From: Escherichia phage vB_EcoP_WFI101126
Sequence record: NC_070991.1
DNA: 64,000 nucleotides
Direction: 5' to 3' (one strand)
This document shows, in pieces, positions 1,497 to 60,654 of the stretch. Under the pieces are notes generated by a model. That model saw only the letters and a program-made list of their open reading frames with translations, searched no databases and was not told where the DNA came from. The translations under genes were made by a program, and so were the position numbers. Numbering within the stretch: the stretch's first letter is position 1; every line of letters begins with the position of its first letter.

Positions 1497-4400
1497 ATGG
1501 CGTTGTATCCAATAAAATCACTCGGTGCTGTCGGTGTTATTGCTGACCAAGCACCTACTGATTTAGCTCCTAATGCTTTCACTAACGCTATAAACGCTCG
1601 GTTTGTTGAGCAGAGAGTTTTTAAGACGGGGGGCAACGCCCCTCTTTCTTACGTAGATGAAGATAAAGACTTAACCCCTCTGTCTTTCATATCTATGCCT
1701 TTCGATTACTATAGTGCAGGTAATAGCTTTCTTATTGTAGGCACTGACAAGAAGCTATATAAACTGACAGATGAAAGCTTGACTGATATCAGCAGAAAAG
1801 TCGCTACGGTGACTAAAAAAGCCTCTGCTACTATCAAAATATATCCTGTGGTCTCTAGGATTACTCCTAAAGAGTCTACTATTTCCATGAACTTCAATCA
1901 AACTAAATCTTTAGAAGTTACAATCTCTCCGGAAGATGCTAATAACCCTGAACTTGTTTGGAGTGTTAGTAACTCTTCTTACGGTCAGATTACTGTAGAC
2001 CCTACTGACTCCAAGAAAGCCTCTTTAACCTCTTTGAATAAAGAAGGCAATCTCGTAGTTACAGTTCAGACTAAAGACGAGTCTGTATCAGCTCAAATTG
2101 CTGTCAACATCATCGATGGAGATTCAGGTATCTTCTTGAGTCAAGATACTGTAACAGTTCGTAAAGGTGGTAATACCACAATAACTGCGGTGACTGGTAA
2201 AACTCCTGTAAGTTGGTCCACTACTAACGGTTCTATCGTTTCTGTGACTCCTAATGCTAACACACTCACGGCAGTGCTTGTTGCTAATGGAGAAGGAACA
2301 GCAACTATCACAGCGGATAACGGAACTAAAACTGCATCATGCGTTGTTAATGTAATACCACAGATTGACAGTATCACTCTGAGTCAAACAGATGTTACCA
2401 TTAACAGAGGGACTCAATATATTCTTACAGCTACAGTATCTCCAACGAATGCTCCTAATAAAAACATAACATGGACTTCCTCTAACCCGAATATTGCTAC
2501 AATATCTGGTACAGGTACAGAGGCAACCATTACTGCGATTACAGCTGGCTTCACTGAGATTACCGCTACTACTCAAGAAGGCAGCAGAACCGCTGTCTGT
2601 ACAGTTCGTGTAGATTTGTCTGGAAGGATGATGAGAACCTCTCTTATGGCTATGTCTTCTACTGAACCAGATGCTCCAGAAGTGGTTGAGGATGTAGTAG
2701 TTCCTGAGTCAGAAGAGGTTTTGTATTTTGCATCACCTTCCTCTGGGATAGATACTACTGGAATGTCTGAAGGGAATAGCTTCTATGATTATTCAAACGT
2801 GGATGACATGGAGGGTTTTGCAAGAGCTTCTCTTTTTGCCACCCCTTTAGATTCTGTAACGTTAGATGTAGTTAGTGCTTCTTTGGATGTAGGAGAGGAG
2901 ATTGTTATTACAGCTACAGCTTCTCCAGAGGGTGATTATTCTTACTTGTGGTCTGTTGATAAGACTGGGTATGTATCGACTACTTCTGTAACTGGCAAGT
3001 CTATCAAACTTACAGCTCTTCGTAAAGGTGAGATTAACATAACATGTTCTGTCAGTCAAATGACACAGAGGGATTATGATGCGTTTGATGATTACCCTTG
3101 GTATCATGCTGTTATATCAAACTGTGTTGTTGCTACTACTCACTATGAAACCCCTCAAGTAAAAGAGTTCGAATCTGAATATTTTACCGATCTTCCGGGA
3201 TGGGGAGAACAAACAGTAGTGGATAACGATGGGAACCCCTCGGTTAAGAAGTTCAACTGGAAGTGTGAAAGGGTTCGCTCTTTTAATAACAGACTCTTTG
3301 CTCTGAATATGAGGGAGTCAAACGCTTCTGGTGTTACAACTAACTACCCGCTCCGTCTTCGTTGGTCTAATTTTGCTAATGAGAACAAAGCTCCTACACT
3401 GTGGGATGACTTTGCCTATGATCGTTTAGTAACATCTGACTTAGCTTCGAATATAGTGGGACAGACTGAGGCTCTGGAAAATGGTTATGCTGGTTACATT
3501 GATTTAGCAGACTCTAACGGGAGTTTAATTGATATCCTACCTCTTAAAGATTACTTGTTCGTTTACACAGAGTTTGAAACGTACATTGGTTCTCCAACTA
3601 ATAACACGTATCAACCACTGATGTTCAAGAAACTCTTTAATGACTCTGGTATCCTTGCCCCTGAGTGTGTAGTAGAAGTTGAAGGCAGTCACTTCGTTGT
3701 TACTCAGAACGACGTGATTCTACACAACGGTGCAACTAAGAAGTCAATTGCTTCCAACCGTGTCAAGAATATGTTGATTAATGAGATATGTCTGGTCAAC
3801 CCGTTAGCTACCAGAGTTCACTTACATCAAGATAAAAAAGAGGTTTGGATTCTTTATGTAGGTCCGGGAGAGCCTAAGGAAAGCTATGCTTGTACTAAAG
3901 CTGCTGTATGGAATTACGAGTTTGATACTTGGTCTTTCCGTACAATACCTTACGCTCAGTGTATTGGTTTGGTTGATCCCCCTGTTCTTGAGAGAGGTCC
4001 AATCTGGGCTGATTTCCAAGAAATCTCTTGGGATGATCCGTCAATAAAAGAGCTAGTCTGGAGGAAAGATGCAACAAACTTCCGTCAGAGGATAACCATA
4101 GTAGGTTCTTTCTTACGTGGATTCTATCAAGTGGATATTGGTGCTTTAGATTATTTCTATGATAGACTCAATGATACTGTTATAGAAAAACCCTTGGAGA
4201 TGAGGTTAGAGAGAACAGGCATTGATTTTGATAATGTCACTAATGAATGGAATCAGAAGCATGTCAACAGATTCAGACCTCAAACAACAGGTTCTGGAAC
4301 TTATGTATTCGAAGCAGGAGGCAGTCAATTCTCAAACGAATATGGTCATCCACACACATCTAAAACATACACAATCGGTGTTGATAGGCATGTCTCTGTG

Positions 4401-27357: not shown

Positions 27358-27393
27358 TTAAAACTCCTTAATATATCAGTGTACACTAAGGAG

Positions 27394-27402
27394 TATACAT
27401 TA
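27394..27402 (-). promoter_or_regulatory. phage-type promoter motif (TAATGTATA on - strand)
   Basis: Exact 9-mer 36 nt upstream of ATG 27357. Confidence 0.5.
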
Positions 27403-27411
27403 TGAATGGTG

Positions 27412-31308: not shown

Positions 31309-31498
31309 TCTATTCCTTGTTAATAAACAGATTGATATGACGCTGGGTAGCAGGAACAACAATAAAAGATTTATACTGACCTTTTGCTAAGTCATGAGCA
31401 ATCTTCTTTGTCTGACCAAGACCCATCACACAGCCACTAACGATAATGGCATGTGCTTGTAATTCTTCAGGTAGGTTTAGTTTCACTCTTTGGGTTCC

Positions 31499-31684
31499 TT
31501 ATAGCATACAAAGAATAATAACAAGAGGTAGTGTTATAGCAAAATGTACCAGAACAACACTACCTAGCTTGATAGCTTTAACATCCTCTTCTGCTGGGTT
31601 TTCTTTAATTGCTAAATTTCGAGCTTTATATATAACAGTACCAACTATTAACGACCACACGGCCCACACAATCAGTGAAATCAT
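31499..31684 (-). CDS. small two-TM membrane protein (paralog 1)
   Basis: Two hydrophobic helices flanking charged loop. Confidence 0.35.
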   Translation of the reverse strand: MISLIVWAVWSLIVGTVIYKARNLAIKENPAEEDVKAIKLGSVVLVHFAITLPLVIILCML

Positions 31685-31693
31685 ATCAAATCC

Positions 31694-40694: not shown

Positions 40695-42725
40695 TTAACC
40701 TCTATTCAATGAACATTTAGGAGAATTACAATAAACTTGATTCATAGAACCAAGCGTACAACTTTCAGCATCGCGCCACGGAATCTGCTTAAAACACTCT
40801 GAGCAGTATCCGAGGGTTGACCACATTGCTTTGGTGAAGTCAGTGCTTCGGTTTCCGTCGAAGCTGACAACAGTTTTGCGGAGAGCTGTTCGTGATTCAG
40901 GAAACACACCTGCTTTCTCAGCAGGTTCCTCCTTTTTTGGCTTAGTTGAGATTGCAAAAATACTGTTGCTACGTTTCTCAACATAAGCATCAACAACATC
41001 CTCCAGAGTGATGCCTGTCTGTTTCGCTGAGGAAGGTAATACAGTCATACGACCAATCATTTCTTCAGTTACACGTAAAGCAAATTCAGGACGACGGGAG
41101 TTTGTTGTATCTGTTGCTCTAATCCAGACATAACCATCTTTGATCGTAGCATTAGACACTTTCTTCTTTACATCTACAGCACAAACTTTACAGATATCTT
41201 CACCACGAAGACGACTAAGCTCTTCATCGAACTCATTCTCTGTTTTAACTTCACCGCAGATTTCACAAACACCAATAGGAGTTTCCTCCTCTTCTTCATC
41301 TTTAGGCTTAGTTAAACCTTCCAGACATTCAGGATGCCAGTAGCACTGATAAGCGAAGACTGCTTTAGGAGCATCTTTCCAATCAATGTGTTTATCGCAA
41401 CCACCACAATCTCCATGAGAGTGTGCTTCCCAGAATTTACGAGTGATAGTAACGCCATTATTGTTGACGAAACTATCATTCATATCAAAAGGGATATCAT
41501 CATCGAAGTCAGCAGTAGTAGACTCAGGCTCCTTTTTCTCCAGAGATGGGTCAACAAAACGACCTGCTGTGATCACTAAACGAACCATAGCATTAACTTC
41601 GGAGATGCAGGATACTGTCCCACGGTAAACAATCTTAGGGTCTTTCAGTGCGTCCTGATAAGCCTTAATGTCTACGTTATGAACATCACCTTCGATATAC
41701 TCTTGAGACTTCTCATCGTAGATATAACCAATCATCTTACCACGAGAAGGAACAGCACCAGCAGTTGCATAAGGAACGAACTCATGCGGAGTGATTTCCA
41801 CAGTCATATCGCGGCGAATGTCAATGTTTCGATCGCTTGCGATTTTGTTTTGACTTACCACTGCGTTTCTTCGACGAACGTCTGCTGCTGTCACTCCCGG
41901 CTTCGTGTCGTAAGGATTGCTTGTACTGCTTTTTGAGGAACTTTGATAGTTGCTTTGGCTGTAGTTGTTCGAGTAGTAACTGCCCCAACGATTGACTACC
42001 GTAAAAACCGGAAGCTCGTGGGCGACCTCTTCAACCAGAGTCATGCTGTTGTTTGACATATCAAAGATATACTCTGTACCAACTTTACATTCAAAATGCT
42101 CATCAATACGGTTCTTGTGAGATCTAGAACGCTTCAGAATCCACATCAACATGTCTTCTTCAGAAGCACCAAACCAATCTCTGTTACAGCGTGCTAGATG
42201 GAAAGGACGCTCTTCGTTACGGATGATATGAAGACGGTTATCAGAAGCATCATGCCAGATTAAGGTGAAAGCACCATCCAGCTTTTGAATAGTCTCTGCT
42301 GCACCAATAGTGTTAATAGAGTGGCAGATGTTCTCACTGTCTACCTCGAAGTTTTTGCTGTCAGGTAACAGGTCTTGGTCCATCAAGGTTCCGTTATGAA
42401 CCAGAGTGATGTTACCATGTTGGAAAGGATGGGCGTTCTTGGCGTTAACTGCACCTTTCGTTGCATGACGGCTGTGACCAACAATCCATGAAGGTGCTAC
42501 AGTGTAAGCTGTTTCACCAGTGGTGTGCTTCTTGTACTCATCTTGTAGGATGAATGCGAAAGAAGGAAGAGCTTCTTTATAAGTGAAGACTTCCTTAGTG
42601 CTTTTACGCTGACCAAAGATACCAGAGGAATGTTGTCCTCTGAATACTCCAGCATAAAAGAGTTGGTTAAATACGTCTAAATCAGTGCTTGACAGATTAC
42701 CGCCAGCTAATACGATGCCACAAAT
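40695..42725 (-). CDS. class-II (Ntn) glutamine amidotransferase with Cys-rich C-terminal extension; non-canonical start
   Basis: Frame open from 42728 to 40695; CGIV...RGQHSSGIFG...GHSRHATKG...NAHPF...HNG motifs all lie upstream of the first ATG/GTG/TTG (42386); ATT at 42725 is 7 nt after AGGTGGA and precedes the catalytic Cys codon. Confidence 0.7.
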   Translation of the reverse strand: MCGIVLAGGNLSSTDLDVFNQLFYAGVFRGQHSSGIFGQRKSTKEVFTYKEALPSFAFILQDEYKKHTTGETAYTVAPSWIVGHSRHATKGAVNAKNAHPFQHGNITLVHNGTLMDQDLLPDSKNFEVDSENICHSINTIGAAETIQKLDGAFTLIWHDASDNRLHIIRNEERPFHLARCNRDWFGASEEDMLMWILKRSRSHKNRIDEHFECKVGTEYIFDMSNNSMTLVEEVAHELPVFTVVNRWGSYYSNNYSQSNYQSSSKSSTSNPYDTKPGVTAADVRRRNAVVSQNKIASDRNIDIRRDMTVEITPHEFVPYATAGAVPSRGKMIGYIYDEKSQEYIEGDVHNVDIKAYQDALKDPKIVYRGTVSCISEVNAMVRLVITAGRFVDPSLEKKEPESTTADFDDDIPFDMNDSFVNNNGVTITRKFWEAHSHGDCGGCDKHIDWKDAPKAVFAYQCYWHPECLEGLTKPKDEEEEETPIGVCEICGEVKTENEFDEELSRLRGEDICKVCAVDVKKKVSNATIKDGYVWIRATDTTNSRRPEFALRVTEEMIGRMTVLPSSAKQTGITLEDVVDAYVEKRSNSIFAISTKPKKEEPAEKAGVFPESRTALRKTVVSFDGNRSTDFTKAMWSTLGYCSECFKQIPWRDAESCTLGSMNQVYCNSPKCSLNRG

Positions 42726-42804
42726 TTTCTAATCCACCTGAAGGGTAAACCCTTTCATCTAATTAACCTTTAAATTGTGCCCCTTTGTCAGAGGCACCCA
42801 TTGA

Positions 42805-43908
42805 TTACAGCGCTTGCTCTAACTGGTTTTCCAGATGGTCTGGAATGTACCCTGTGATATTACTATCACTGTGACCTGACTCACGTAGTAAGTCAAAAAT
42901 AGCACGGATACGTTGTTCTGGAGCGTGTCTTACTTGAGACAGGTCAGTTGTACGAAGCATAACCAGAATCTCTTGGTACAAGTTGTTAGCGTTCCCTCGG
43001 ACATACCCAAGGAATCCGTAGAAGTCTGACATATAACGTAAGTCAACAAGAACATCTCCGTTGGAGTTGGTTCTACGTAAACGAATACGACCAGACTGTT
43101 CTACTTCATGAGAACGGCAATACAAAACATCACGGGCCATACAATACCCTGAATGCAAATCAGATTCATCCAGATTGTAATCCAGAGGAAGGTAAGGAAG
43201 CATTGGGGCAAATCGTACAGTATTTAAGTGCTCAATAAACTGATCATTGCTCATATCTGCGTTATCTAAAGCCAGCTTCTTCAACATCAAGAAGCGGTTA
43301 ACCAGATTGAGAAGTTGACCACGTTTCCACTTAGGCTCACTGATACGGAACTCAATCGAACCGTATTGGGCAAGTGGCAGAAGGTTCAGGGATGTATACT
43401 TATCCCATGAACGCACCAGACGGTTGAAGAACTCTTCGTCGTCGTAGTTAAATGCGTCAGAGGCATTCATTACCTGTGCTTGTACCACTGCAAAAGCAGG
43501 GCAGAAGTTGCTACGGTAACGATGGTAGCCTGAACACTTGAACAACATCTTTTCATAGAAGGTCCAAGCGAGAATGGTTTTCTTGAGGATATTACTATCA
43601 GCATCCCTCATATCCATATGAACGTGAGTAGAGCAACGCCAAGTCCCCTCGGCGTGCGATTCAGCTACTGCTTCACTCAGGTTGTTGATAGCGTCTAACA
43701 ACTCCTGTCCGTTGTAAGGCCGTGAACATACCATTTCACAACCATTACGCAGGGAACCATCCTCTGTACAATCCCACATATCTGCTTCGATATGGTCGGA
43801 ACCTTCGAGTTCAAGTTCAATACCGACACCGCACTGAAGTGCAATTGAACTATGCGCCTCAGTTAAACGACCTTCTCGATACCCAAAAGTTTGCGCTACA
43901 GTTGTCAT
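42805..43908 (-). CDS. GCS2/YbdK-like carboxylate-amine ligase (glutamine synthetase fold amidoligase)
   Basis: GVGIELELEG near N-terminus and HVHMD motif as in YbdK (GIELE...HVHVG). Confidence 0.5.
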   Translation of the reverse strand: MTTVAQTFGYREGRLTEAHSSIALQCGVGIELELEGSDHIEADMWDCTEDGSLRNGCEMVCSRPYNGQELLDAINNLSEAVAESHAEGTWRCSTHVHMDMRDADSNILKKTILAWTFYEKMLFKCSGYHRYRSNFCPAFAVVQAQVMNASDAFNYDDEEFFNRLVRSWDKYTSLNLLPLAQYGSIEFRISEPKWKRGQLLNLVNRFLMLKKLALDNADMSNDQFIEHLNTVRFAPMLPYLPLDYNLDESDLHSGYCMARDVLYCRSHEVEQSGRIRLRRTNSNGDVLVDLRYMSDFYGFLGYVRGNANNLYQEILVMLRTTDLSQVRHAPEQRIRAIFDLLRESGHSDSNITGYIPDHLENQLEQAL

Positions 43909-50950: not shown

Positions 50951-51430
50951 ATACCCTCCAATTAAAAAGAAGAAAACTATCAGGGGAGTACACTAGCTCT
51001 GGGCCACGCTGTAGACATCGGCCTACCTTCCACAGCTAATCAGCTAATGTACTCTCCTAATAGTTTATGAATAGGGGGAGGGGACGAATCCTCCCATATC
51101 CTATTAATTAATATTGCATGTAAGATCTAACAATCGGTTGCCTTTGTAGGAATAAGCGTTATGCTAATCCAGCACTAAACTCCCGCCCCCTTAGTGGGCT
51201 GGGTTATTAAAGGGTAACGCCCTTATGGGCTAGTTACATGAATGTTAGTTTGATAGGAGATCTGAAGTCCTATCTCAAAGGACTCTCGTAAGAATCCTTC
51301 ACGATATTACTTATTCAACTCTCGTCGGCTATCTCTCCAAGCCAACCAAGTGTAGATTTTCAACTCTTCAAAATCTTCTGGAGAGAATAGATATTCTTTG
51401 AAGGTGTCACTAAACCACTCTAAAAATTCT

Positions 51431-52605: not shown

Positions 52606-52681
52606 TGGTGCGCCCTACAGGACTCGAACCTGTAACCAATAGCTTAGAAGGCTACTGCTCTATCCATTGAGCTAAGAGCGC
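52606..52681 (-). tRNA. tRNA-Arg (anticodon UCU), CCA encoded
   Basis: 76 nt; 7-bp acceptor stem with one G-U, D-arm GCTC/GAGC, anticodon loop CTTCTAA, T-arm ACAGG-TTCGAGT-CCTGT, 3' ACCA. Confidence 0.85.
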
Positions 52682-57876: not shown

Positions 57877-58100
57877 TTTCTTAATCCCAGCTTTCTTAAG
57901 ATACGGCCTAACGTTGTTTCTTGCGTGATAATATAGCTGATCGCTTCACGTTCCAACGTTTCAATCTTCATTGGCGACGGATACCATTCACCGGTAATAA
58001 CACATTTACATTCAACGCCATACTTTTTAGATAGGCGGTAATGTTGACCGTTGACAAGATTTCTATAGATCGTGGTATGTGTAATTAACATGATCGTCAC
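57873..58100 (-). CDS. hypothetical protein
   Basis: ORF track. Confidence 0.3.
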   Translation of the reverse strand: MTIMLITHTTIYRNLVNGQHYRLSKKYGVECKCVITGEWYPSPMKIETLEREAISYIITQETTLGRILRKLGLRK

Positions 58101-58144
58101 CTTTGATTAGATTCTTTGATTAATGCACTGAATCAATGCACTGA

Positions 58145-58179
58145 TAAAAGAAAAGGCGCTACCCGTTAAGATAGCGCCT
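58145..58179 (-). terminator. intrinsic terminator
   Basis: 8-bp perfect stem AGGCGCTA/TAGCGCCT plus T-rich tract on - strand. Confidence 0.55.
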
Positions 58180-58202
58180 TATGTTTATTCGAATTGTCTT
58201 AC

Positions 58203-59111: not shown

Positions 59112-60022
59112 CTTTCAATTGTAAGGGCGCTATTGCCCCGCTCTCTATGAGCTTGTTTAAGTCACTATTAACTTAACTATAACCACTCGTTGTTAAGTGG
59201 TTATAGGTAAGCGGGGCGGTCTTATCAGGAGTTAACCTTGCCGCCCCTTATCCGTGATGTTTCATCTGGTATCTTTAATTAGTCGCTATAAACGAAGCCG
59301 ACCTGATAGCGATGATCAATCATCACAATAAGGCTATGCGTCCGACTCTATTTAATTACATTACTGTAACCGTCGGCAATATCGTCCACTTTGTTTTCGC
59401 TCCCGCTTATCCTTTTATATCAGCTCTCTATCGCTAGTCATCGCCCACTACGGGATACTATTGCGAAAGAGTCACTAACCGCCTATTATTCCGGCGTTTT
59501 ATATCTTTCAGCAGGTTTACTACATAACCCGACTATGTACTTTCATCTTATAATGAATCTCAAGCCGTTCACATCGTAAACGTTCGCATTAAACCTTATT
59601 GTTAAATAGCAATTTGCCACTTTTTAACCACTCACCGCCGCTCTCAATTGAGCGTTATTTCTTCGGGCTTGCCTACCCTGATTAACTTCTTTCACCGTAG
59701 CACCTTGTTAGCGATGACCGCCGCTACCCTTAACCGTGGGCGATTAGCTTAAGTCTTTGCGTATACTCGATGAATCCGTTTATCAGTGGTGACGTTTCCA
59801 GCAAGGGATTGTAAGGCTGTTTTCTCTGATAGTTTAGAGAGTCTTACATCGTTTTGTCTGGTATGTTATCCGATGGTTATTATCATCTAACATATTCAAC
59901 CGATATAGGAGAATGTTTAAATTATTAAAGAGCGGTAAATCTATCAGTGTGCTTTCTCACACTATGCAACTGTTAGCCGTTGTTACGCTTTCCTTAAGCG
60001 GTGATTTGCTTAAGTGATGCTC

Positions 60023-60051: not shown

Positions 60052-60654
60052 CCGCTTTTTAATCTTTTTCGTCGTTCCCGCTATTGGGAGGATATATCAA
60101 TCAGCTTTATTTGATTGAAGATTAAGCGGTGATGCTTAACTTATGATTCATATTGTTAAAGAGCGTTAGCCTTTTAGAGTGTCTGCTAATCACTGTCACA
60201 TTTAAGGCTTACTTATTCATTAACGGGCCGCCTACACCCGAACTACTCGCTGCACTATGTGCCACCTTTCCCGCGATACGTTGATTTGGGAACTAGTTAG
60301 CGATGTTTTGCTAACTTGTGGTTAGTATGGACTACTTTAACCACGTTTGCAAGCTCTTTTTATCATCTTCTTTTAATTCCTTTCCCTTATCTCGCGTGAA
60401 TCTTTGCGAAAGGGCAAGATGATAAGTCTGATTTGTCTTTTAGGAATCTAGTGCGCTTTCAAGCATTAATCTTTTGAAAGTATCGAACAAATAAGGCTTA
60501 TTGATATTGCTTATTGTCCGCCTGCGTCACGTATGAATCAGGAATCAATTCTACCGATTAACTGAGCGCCTTATAGTAATGACGTCGCCGCCACCCGTAA
60601 GACAAATCATATTTTTAAAGAGCGGGATATTTCACGTCATCGCTGACTATGCTC

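Follow-up and report, generated by a model that had tools for sequence, protein, structure and literature searches.

The 64,000 nucleotides analysed here (the window, in what follows), from Escherichia phage vB_EcoP_WFI101126 (NC_070991.1), are those of a phiEco32-like podophage (Kuravirus, Gordonclarkvirinae), and on their minus strand lies a gene for a class-II (Ntn) glutamine amidotransferase (GATase) in which no ATG, GTG or TTG stands between the preceding in-frame stop and the codon for the catalytic cysteine. Translation of this gene begins at or before that cysteine (Cys1), and very probably it does so at the AUU directly in front of it (42725-42723), with the initiating formylmethionine (fMet) then removed to leave Cys1 as the catalytic N-terminal nucleophile, and with expression of the enzyme limited, or made conditional, by the rarity of its start codon. 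The minus strand reads TTTAAAGGTTAATTAG ATG AAA GGG TTT ACC CTT CAG GTG GAT TAG AAA ATT TGT GGC ATC GTA. In this string a first-pass annotation, made from the letters alone, had marked a 9-codon open reading frame (ORF; the mini-ORF below), its TAG, the ATT, the Cys codon, an AGGTGGA 7 nucleotides (nt) upstream of the ATT and a small hairpin, and every one of those coordinates has held. The features of the start region are these.

40695 to 42725, minus strand: class-II (Ntn) GATase gene, orthologue of phiEco32 gp83, recognised by its frame, its GATase_6 match, the alignment of Cys1 and the phiEco32 coding sequence (CDS), which starts from the same ATT
42384 to 42386, minus strand: TTG, the first canonical in-frame start after the TAG, inside the GATase domain, and the fallback start of ORF finders and of several GenBank records
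42718 to 42773, minus strand: invariant leader block of 55-56 nt, TTAAAGGTTAATTAGATGAAAGGGTTTACCCTTCAGGTGGATTAGAAAATTTGTGG, identical in Kuravirus, Suseptimavirus and Nieuwekanaalvirus
42720 to 42722, minus strand: TGT, codon for the catalytic N-terminal Cys (Cys1 of the mature enzyme), the invariant column 1 of the alignment and residue 1 of the GlmS and PurF domains
42723 to 42725, minus strand: ATT (AUU), the probable initiation codon, at the ATG position of orthologues and invariant in about 100 genomes
42729 to 42758, minus strand: mini-ORF of 9 codons, MKGFTLQVD-stop, from ATG 42758-42756 to TAG 42731-42729, in frame with the GATase gene
42733 to 42739, minus strand: Shine-Dalgarno (SD)-like AGGTGGA, its last base 7 nt before the ATT, inside the mini-ORF at codons 6-9
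42741 to 42754, minus strand: hairpin AAGGG-TTTA-CCCTT, -5.3 kcal/mol alone

The GATase frame runs for 676 codons from the ATT to a TAA at 40697-40695. In a scripted frame check neither of the two codons that separate the TAG from the Cys codon was a canonical start, and the 112-codon stretch without in-frame ATG, GTG or TTG that had been described at first pass is indeed there, the next such codon being the TTG at 42386, 112 codons past the Cys codon and 114 past the TAG. A start-less head of 114 codons is unique in the window: in the other open frames that reach 150 codons (35 with this one) it has at most 23. For the 112 codons after Cys1 in Kuravirus (42386-42722, minus strand) to lack Met, GTG and TTG would have a chance of roughly 0.2%, assuming about 5.5% such codons; the start-less stretch is not conserved across genera, ECBP2 having an ATG at codon 11.

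Is a gene with such a head a real one? In all likelihood it is intact and functional, as judged from its sequence. Over codons 2-113 the ratio of nonsynonymous to synonymous change (dN/dS) is 0.06-0.10 in comparisons with Suseptimavirus and Nieuwekanaalvirus, in which 64-78% of the synonymous sites differ, a level of saturation, and at such a ratio the start-less stretch must be translated and under selection. The product matches Pfam GATase_6 at 55 bits against a cut-off of 27 (E=1e-14) and GATase_7 at 27.4 against 25. With the single protein phmmer gave no match among PDB sequences, and a profile of 15 phage homologues, the same alignment from which residue conservation was read, was required. 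Position 1 of this profile is Cys, and it falls on residue 1 in each of three structures, the E. coli GlmS glutaminase domain (1xff), E. coli PurF (1ecb) and mature Bacillus subtilis PurF (1ao0); C1, R28, G29, H83, R85, A87, T88, H98, P99, N110, G111 and D128 are invariant in the 15 homologues. With an Arg near position 26, H-x-R-x-A-T, the Asn-Gly of the oxyanion hole and the substrate-binding Asp, the protein has what is looked for at the sequence level in a class-II (Ntn) amidotransferase. Proteomics of the related phage SU10 detected the protein through 9 peptides, though the expected mass tabulated there, 63.8 kDa, is that of a truncated gene model (PMC4281155).

The region matches 95 phage records, of which the closest (97-98% identity) are phiEco32-like podophages, and 28 further ones (76-79%) are from the sister genera Suseptimavirus and Nieuwekanaalvirus. 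When the leader plus the first four codons served as a 64-nt query, 98 records were matched: 67 at 100% identity, 28 that differ only at the Gly codon (GGC/GGT), two that are one genome, Aeromonas phage BUCT695, as deposited in GenBank and in RefSeq, and one weak chance match (78% identity, E = 0.04). No difference in leader, TAG or ATT is seen among 95 phage records and 7 metagenome contigs, one of the seven having TGC instead of TGT as its Cys codon. As the neighbouring TGT/TGC and GGC/GGT vary while leader, TAG and ATT are identical, the sequence is not an error; the comparison with orthologues that the first-pass annotation had proposed finds TAG and ATT invariant in about 100 phiEco32-type genomes and contigs.

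More distant orthologues are what locates the start. In nine other lineages the gene has an ordinary SD and ATG-TGT, no leader ORF, and its ATG exactly at the position of the ATT: Proteus P59, Cronobacter GAP52, PKM.Lu.22.1, Salmonella SE131, Aeromonas LAh_9, Escherichia PJNS034, Pseudomonas Bjorn, and the IMG/VR contigs L027 and L028, the last two at 63-65% amino acid identity. With the ATG of these orthologues precisely where the ATT stands, AUU is to be taken as the start codon. Ordinary ATG-TGT orthologues devoid of a leader had been named at first pass as grounds for giving up the peculiarity of this start; such orthologues do exist in other genera, but what they do is fix the position of the start codon, and the finding is not overturned. 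Nor is the AUU start itself new, as it has been in databases since 2008: the CDS of phiEco32 gp83 (GenBank EU330206, 2008), like that of SU10 gp85, starts at this ATT. Elsewhere the CDS has been begun downstream, at an internal ATG or TTG, with loss of the catalytic Cys and of up to more than 100 residues (ECBP2 NC_018859, KBNP1711 NC_023593, EP335 NC_070979, Paul MN045231, BUCT695 OL799327, Klyazma OP125547), and the majority of the 98 records matched by the leader query have no CDS over the true start. Initiation at AUU, one of several explanations initially on offer, is the one upheld by the ATG of orthologues at the same codon, the SD 7 nt upstream, the invariant ATT, purifying selection and the phiEco32 and SU10 annotations.

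The SD-like AGGUGG, 7-8 nt upstream, would position the ribosome, which would set fMet-tRNA on the AUU; deformylase and methionine aminopeptidase would then take off the fMet, and the mature protein would start with its catalytic Cys, like E. coli GlmS and PurF. What would be the point of so poor a start? In E. coli initiation at AUU proceeds at 1-2% of the AUG rate, and the only confirmed AUU starts are those of infC and pcnB (bioRxiv 10.1101/063800). With so low a rate, and with the discrimination exerted by IF3, the codon most likely holds expression of the enzyme low or conditional. The chances that 30S subunits initiate directly on the SD and AUU, with no other aid, are about even.

The phiEco32-type phages are not alone in this. 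Among 80 IMG/VR homologues sampled by profile, the match starts at Cys1 in 73, and the codon preceding Cys1 in these is ATG in 60, TTG in 2, ATT in 10 (5 phiEco32-type and 5 others) and ATC in 1; Klebsiella phage Klyazma, whose annotation is truncated, also has ATC there. In a neighbour-joining tree the ATT and ATC cases fall in 7-8 separate clades. Every ATT or ATC homologue has an SD that ends 7 nt upstream, and all but one locus (L116) lack a canonical in-frame start downstream of the preceding stop. If the phiEco32 type and L116 are set apart, these SDs are mostly strong, GGAGGA or GGAGGG, and pair at -9.3 to -11.2 kcal/mol, where the homologues that start with ATG have a median of -6.05. 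The other ATT/ATC lineages are without a mini-ORF, and their upstream gene ends 19-30 nt away. For cellular genes, the pattern GGAGG-N5-8-ATT-TGY-GGN-ATH-GTN-GG was scanned against one genome per species for 185,579 bacterial and archaeal species, and of its 22 matches one is a real N-terminal case, the rest being internal or chance; as there was no ATG control the contrast between phage and cellular genes is a qualitative one. The exception is glmS of a Hyphomicrobiales metagenome-assembled genome (L133; JAPLOW010000103.1, about 2090-2119, minus strand), with AGGAGGA, 7 nt and ATT-TGC, and 606 amino acids after the Cys, with CGIVGVVGRE..RGYDSAGIA. An in-frame canonical start is also present 23 codons upstream of it, and it is a likely cellular example of an AUU-Cys start.

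The leader is under extreme constraint. In the alignment of the three genera 55 of its 55 columns are invariant, a share that drops to 57-60% for the CDS on either side and to 39% for the hairpin region next to it, and of the blocks in the 64-kb window that are identical in all three it ranks about 10th by length. Taken with its contents (mini-ORF, hairpin, SD and A-rich spacer), we read it as a candidate module for translational control of the gene. Folded by itself it is predicted to form, at -9.0 kcal/mol, an inner stem UGAA-A-GGG / CCC-UUCA, which extends the small hairpin (42739-42757) and pairs the UG of the mini-ORF AUG, and an outer stem UUAAUU / GAUUAG, with GGUG of the SD in an internal loop and the AUU single-stranded in an A-rich tract. 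Searches for relatives of the leader gave no match in Rfam 15 (best 16-17 bits, where gathering scores are 44-70), no second copy in the window, no counterpart on the E. coli chromosome and, in IMG/VR and a metagenome collection, no variants, only identical phiEco32-type leaders and chance matches. Two further foldings were rejected: the long-range pairing of GGUUAAU..GAUG with CAUC..AUUAGCU (codons 3-8) in the minimum free energy structure is not kept in BUCT695, and another hairpin, GGUUUACC/GGUGGAUU, in which the SD would be sequestered, is broken up there.

BUCT695 belongs to the Grimontviridae, and its protein is only about 51-54% identical in amino acids, yet it carries the same leader, with mini-ORF MKGLTLQAD-stop. 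Two of the 44 nt that run from the mini-ORF ATG to the Cys codon are changed: in the hairpin loop a TTT has become TTA (TTTA to TTAA), which leaves the stem as it was, and at a single central position of the SD a GTG has become GCG; further upstream AAAGG has become AAATG and 1 nt is inserted. By its protein, BUCT695 is placed in the tree beside GAP52 (84% bootstrap), and the E. coli phages beside the ATG-start contigs L027 and L028 (100%). With BUCT695 and the E. coli phages in non-sister clades, either several losses or a transfer of the approximately 60-nt module is required. GAP52 itself reads TAGATGAAAGGATTTTTAGTATG-TGT, and its start region looks like the leader minus the 14 nt ACCCTTCAGGTGGA, with AAAGGA acting as SD.

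Several points weigh against the account of initiation at AUU given above. Neither N-terminus nor ribosome-profiling data on the AUU were found in the accessible literature, the SU10 supplements containing no peptide list. Pairing of the phiEco32-type SD to the 3' end of the 16S RNA, at a spacing of 7, comes to -5.9 kcal/mol, only average beside the -6.05 median of the ATG-start homologues, so that AUU initiation with nothing to aid it would be weak and could have help from the mini-ORF. Invariance at 55 of 55 nt exceeds the needs of an SD and a start codon, and part of the leader's function is left unexplained by them. Its predicted folding is only modestly better than that of shuffled sequences (z = -2.1), and the leader offers no sequence variation from which covariation might support the fold.

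Might ribosomes then come to the AUU by way of the mini-ORF? Tentatively, they may translate it, stop at its UAG and restart 3 nt on, past the intervening AAA, at the AUU, where the SD inside the mini-ORF would have held them; the discrimination by IF3 would in that event be bypassed, and GATase output would depend on translation of the mini-ORF and opening of the hairpin. Coupling of termination and reinitiation had been put forward at first pass, and it fits the geometry, which is that of classical translational coupling, with the stop 3 nt before the restart and the SD in the last upstream codons. As to the mini-ORF's own start, in the E. coli phages its AUG has AAA as second codon, an A/U-rich stretch upstream and a weak AAGG 8 nt upstream, but that AAGG is lost in BUCT695 (AAAGG to AAATG), and the UG of the AUG is paired in the predicted hairpin. 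BUCT695 nevertheless keeps the AUG, the frame and the UAG despite the distance between the proteins. An average SD here, when most of the ATT/ATC homologues without a mini-ORF have a strong GGAGGA, fits a compensating device, and the overlapping constraints of peptide, hairpin, SD and stop would yield extreme conservation, though there is no variation by which selection on the peptide could be told from selection on the RNA. Further, six other ATT/ATC lineages do without an adjacent mini-ORF, and in GAP52 the string TAGATGAAAGGA, likewise present, provides the SD region for an ordinary ATG start, so the upstream ATG may be a relic. A wider proposal, to be entertained with similar reserve, is that AUU or AUC is a selected, recurrent design of phage class-II GATase genes (about 15% of those sampled, in 7-8 lineages), a dosage limiter or infection-stage timer sensitive to IF3, which in the phiEco32 lineage and BUCT695 would have been elaborated into a 55-nt switch whose mini-ORF and hairpin deliver terminating ribosomes to the AUU.

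The leader might instead be conserved for a different reason, as a translational operator bound by protein, as an RNase processing site with a protective 5' hairpin, or as a DNA signal, the mini-ORF being incidental, but this is rather unlikely. Within the Gordonclarkvirinae every nucleotide is invariant, the hairpin loop too, as one would sooner expect of a site bound by protein than of a plain hairpin, and the other blocks identical in three genera include known regulatory DNA: one of them, 27362-27404, has on the minus strand TAATGTATA, the published promoter motif of gp36, the phage sigma (PMC4281155). That motif (tAATGTATAtA), however, is absent from the leader, a scan for sigma-70 promoters and terminators found no site on its coding strand, and the block, unique in the window and lacking an Rfam family or E. 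coli counterpart, comes to its end right at the SD, the AUU and the first codons, a sign that translation is concerned. Related phages, which start with ATG, keep a TTTAAATG motif at the equivalent upstream position; in the window the motif TTTAAAKGTWA is not enriched.

Far less probable is read-through of the amber codon, in which translation would start at ATG 42758, the UAG would be suppressed and a 12-residue propeptide, MKGFTLQVD-X-KI, would be cleaved autocatalytically to expose Cys1. The mini-ORF is in frame, its TAG is followed by A, and 12 residues is close to the cleaved propeptide of 11 residues in B. subtilis PurF. However, the TAG is present in every genome, the sole tRNA of the window is Arg-TCT and no suppressor, TAG terminates 10 of the 86 ORFs in the window and so is not recoded, all more distant orthologues start Met-Cys with no propeptide, and other ATT/ATC lineages are without any upstream in-frame ATG. 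Natural E. coli hosts are not known to be suppressor strains. The suggestion of the first-pass annotation that a precursor bearing a propeptide is interrupted by a sequencing error or a suppressed amber codon finds, on these grounds, no support. Frameshifting or hopping was considered and rejected, as mini-ORF and gene share one frame and the enzyme needs an N-terminal Cys. That the TAG or ATT is an error, the gene a pseudogene, or its product one that starts from TTG 42386 and lacks the catalytic domain, as the downstream starts of ORF finders and many GenBank records and the SU10 mass might suggest, is refuted by comparative data, namely the identity of the sequence in about 100 independently sequenced genomes and contigs, the dN/dS over 112 start-less codons with catalytic residues all invariant, and internal starts that are not conserved (an ATG at codon 11 in ECBP2, none for 112 codons in Kuravirus).

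Around the gene, the following lie on the same strand.

42777 to 42797, minus strand: intergenic stem-loop GUGCCUCU-GACAA-AGGGGCAC, directly after the amidoligase stop, found by folding
42805 to 43908, minus strand: Amidoligase_2 gene (PF12224, by Pfam), orthologue of phiEco32 gp84, upstream of the GATase gene
52606 to 52681, minus strand: tRNA-Arg, anticodon TCT, the sole tRNA of the window

The stop codon of the amidoligase gene is 79 nt upstream of the ATT, and other neighbours are a phiEco32-type COOH-NH2 ligase (gp86), an ATP-grasp enzyme (gp80) and a DUF7195 protein; ECBP2 has one tRNA at the place corresponding to that of the tRNA-Arg. Within the GATase protein the GATase domain is the N-terminal 200 or so amino acids, and the C-terminal 430 or so contain three Cys-rich pairs of CxxC motifs. 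No Pfam match was found for residues from about 250 to 676, and this part would in effect be an uncharacterised acceptor or targeting domain. Its motifs (40695-41970, minus strand) are CGGCDKH..C..HPEC, CEICGE..CKVCA and CSECFK..C..CNSPKC, and there is an acidic linker.

The stem-loop after the amidoligase stop keeps its pairing while its sequence varies, GTGCC/GGCAC in Kuravirus and GCGC/GCGC in Suseptimavirus with different loops (the arms being GTGCCTCT..AGGGGCAC and GCGCTCT..AGGGCGC), evidence that this intergenic region does tolerate change in structural elements of an ordinary kind. There is no T-run after it, and it may stabilise or process mRNA rather than be a classical terminator. 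In the Grimontviridae, Lahexavirus and related contigs (L008-L013, L027, L028) the motif TTTAAATG(T) lies, in most cases behind a GC-rich hairpin, some 20-35 nt ahead of the GATase start; it holds the AATGTA core of the gp36 promoter motif and might be a phage-sigma promoter in those phages, and its counterpart in the window has degenerated to TTTAAAGGT (42766-42774). On the plus strand a sigma-70-like promoter antisense to the gene (42689-42716; TTGACA-16-TACGAT, 10 of 12 matches) is directed into the leader from the first GATase codons; no other promoter-like site came out of the scan there, and it is probably a chance match since the TTGACA is not conserved in ECBP2 or KBNP1711. Other blocks identical in the three genera, of 63-196 nt, are at 31495-31690, 31342-31435, 59254-59334, 58111-58189 (with a GC hairpin), 57891-57962, 51250-51313 and 60405-60467; they stand out against a general divergence of 20-30%, and several, in the early region, look regulatory or structured.

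How does this start compare with those already known? An AUU start is of a known kind, that of E. coli infC (IF3) and pcnB, where as here AUU follows an SD, weak, IF3-sensitive initiation is expected, and relatives keep the AUU but distant orthologues have AUG. Unlike in infC and pcnB, the AUU belongs here to a phage enzyme gene, not to a host gene for translation or RNA metabolism, no autoregulatory logic is known for it, and there is an invariant 55-nt leader with mini-ORF and hairpin. Nivinskas and colleagues are said to have described, in 1992, internal AUU initiation in gene 26 of phage T4. That too would be phage AUU initiation in E. coli, but the T4 AUU is an internal start giving a second product, whereas the GATase gene has no start other than AUU for the full-length enzyme. 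E. coli GlmS and PurF have, in the same way, their catalytic Cys directly after the initiator codon, and the same invariant Arg, Asn-Gly and Asp; they differ in that their initiator is AUG, in the acceptor domain whose place is here taken by the Cys-rich region of about 430 amino acids, and in that this gene sits in a phiEco32-type cluster of amidoligase, COOH-NH2 ligase and ATP-grasp genes. B. subtilis PurF has a short in-frame peptide-coding stretch of similar length before its catalytic Cys, but in the phages the in-frame TAG interrupts that stretch in every genome, leaving no continuous ORF, and the orthologues have no propeptide. With short leader ORFs (cat-86, cmlA 9-codon leaders, ermC) and with operon coupling there are in common a 9-codon ORF and hairpin directly upstream, an SD in or next to the leader ORF, and a stop near the start. 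Unlike in the cat-86, cmlA and ermC leaders, the restart codon would be non-canonical, the hairpin leaves the downstream SD unsequestered in the conserved predicted fold, there is no known inducer or stalling motif, and the mini-ORF is putative. For the invariant leader, its presence in an unrelated Aeromonas phage and the repeated ATT or ATC before Cys1, no description was found in the literature searched, which did not extend to Iyer et al. 2009 or to the papers on the phiEco32 genome and its transcription; the leader and the recurrent use of ATT/ATC seem new.

A practical consequence is that most GenBank and RefSeq records of these phages omit the first 10 to 112 or more codons of the gene, the catalytic Cys included, and gene finders that bar ATT and ATC starts would repeat the error for about 1 in 7 of the phage homologues. 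If the reading is true, a phage gene family that has adopted AUU or AUC repeatedly, and in this case together with an ultra-conserved leader, would be a natural system in which to study IF3-dependent discrimination of start codons during infection, and reinitiation at non-canonical codons, and the uncharacterised amidoligase/GATase pathway of these phages would be marked as one with apparently tight control of dosage.

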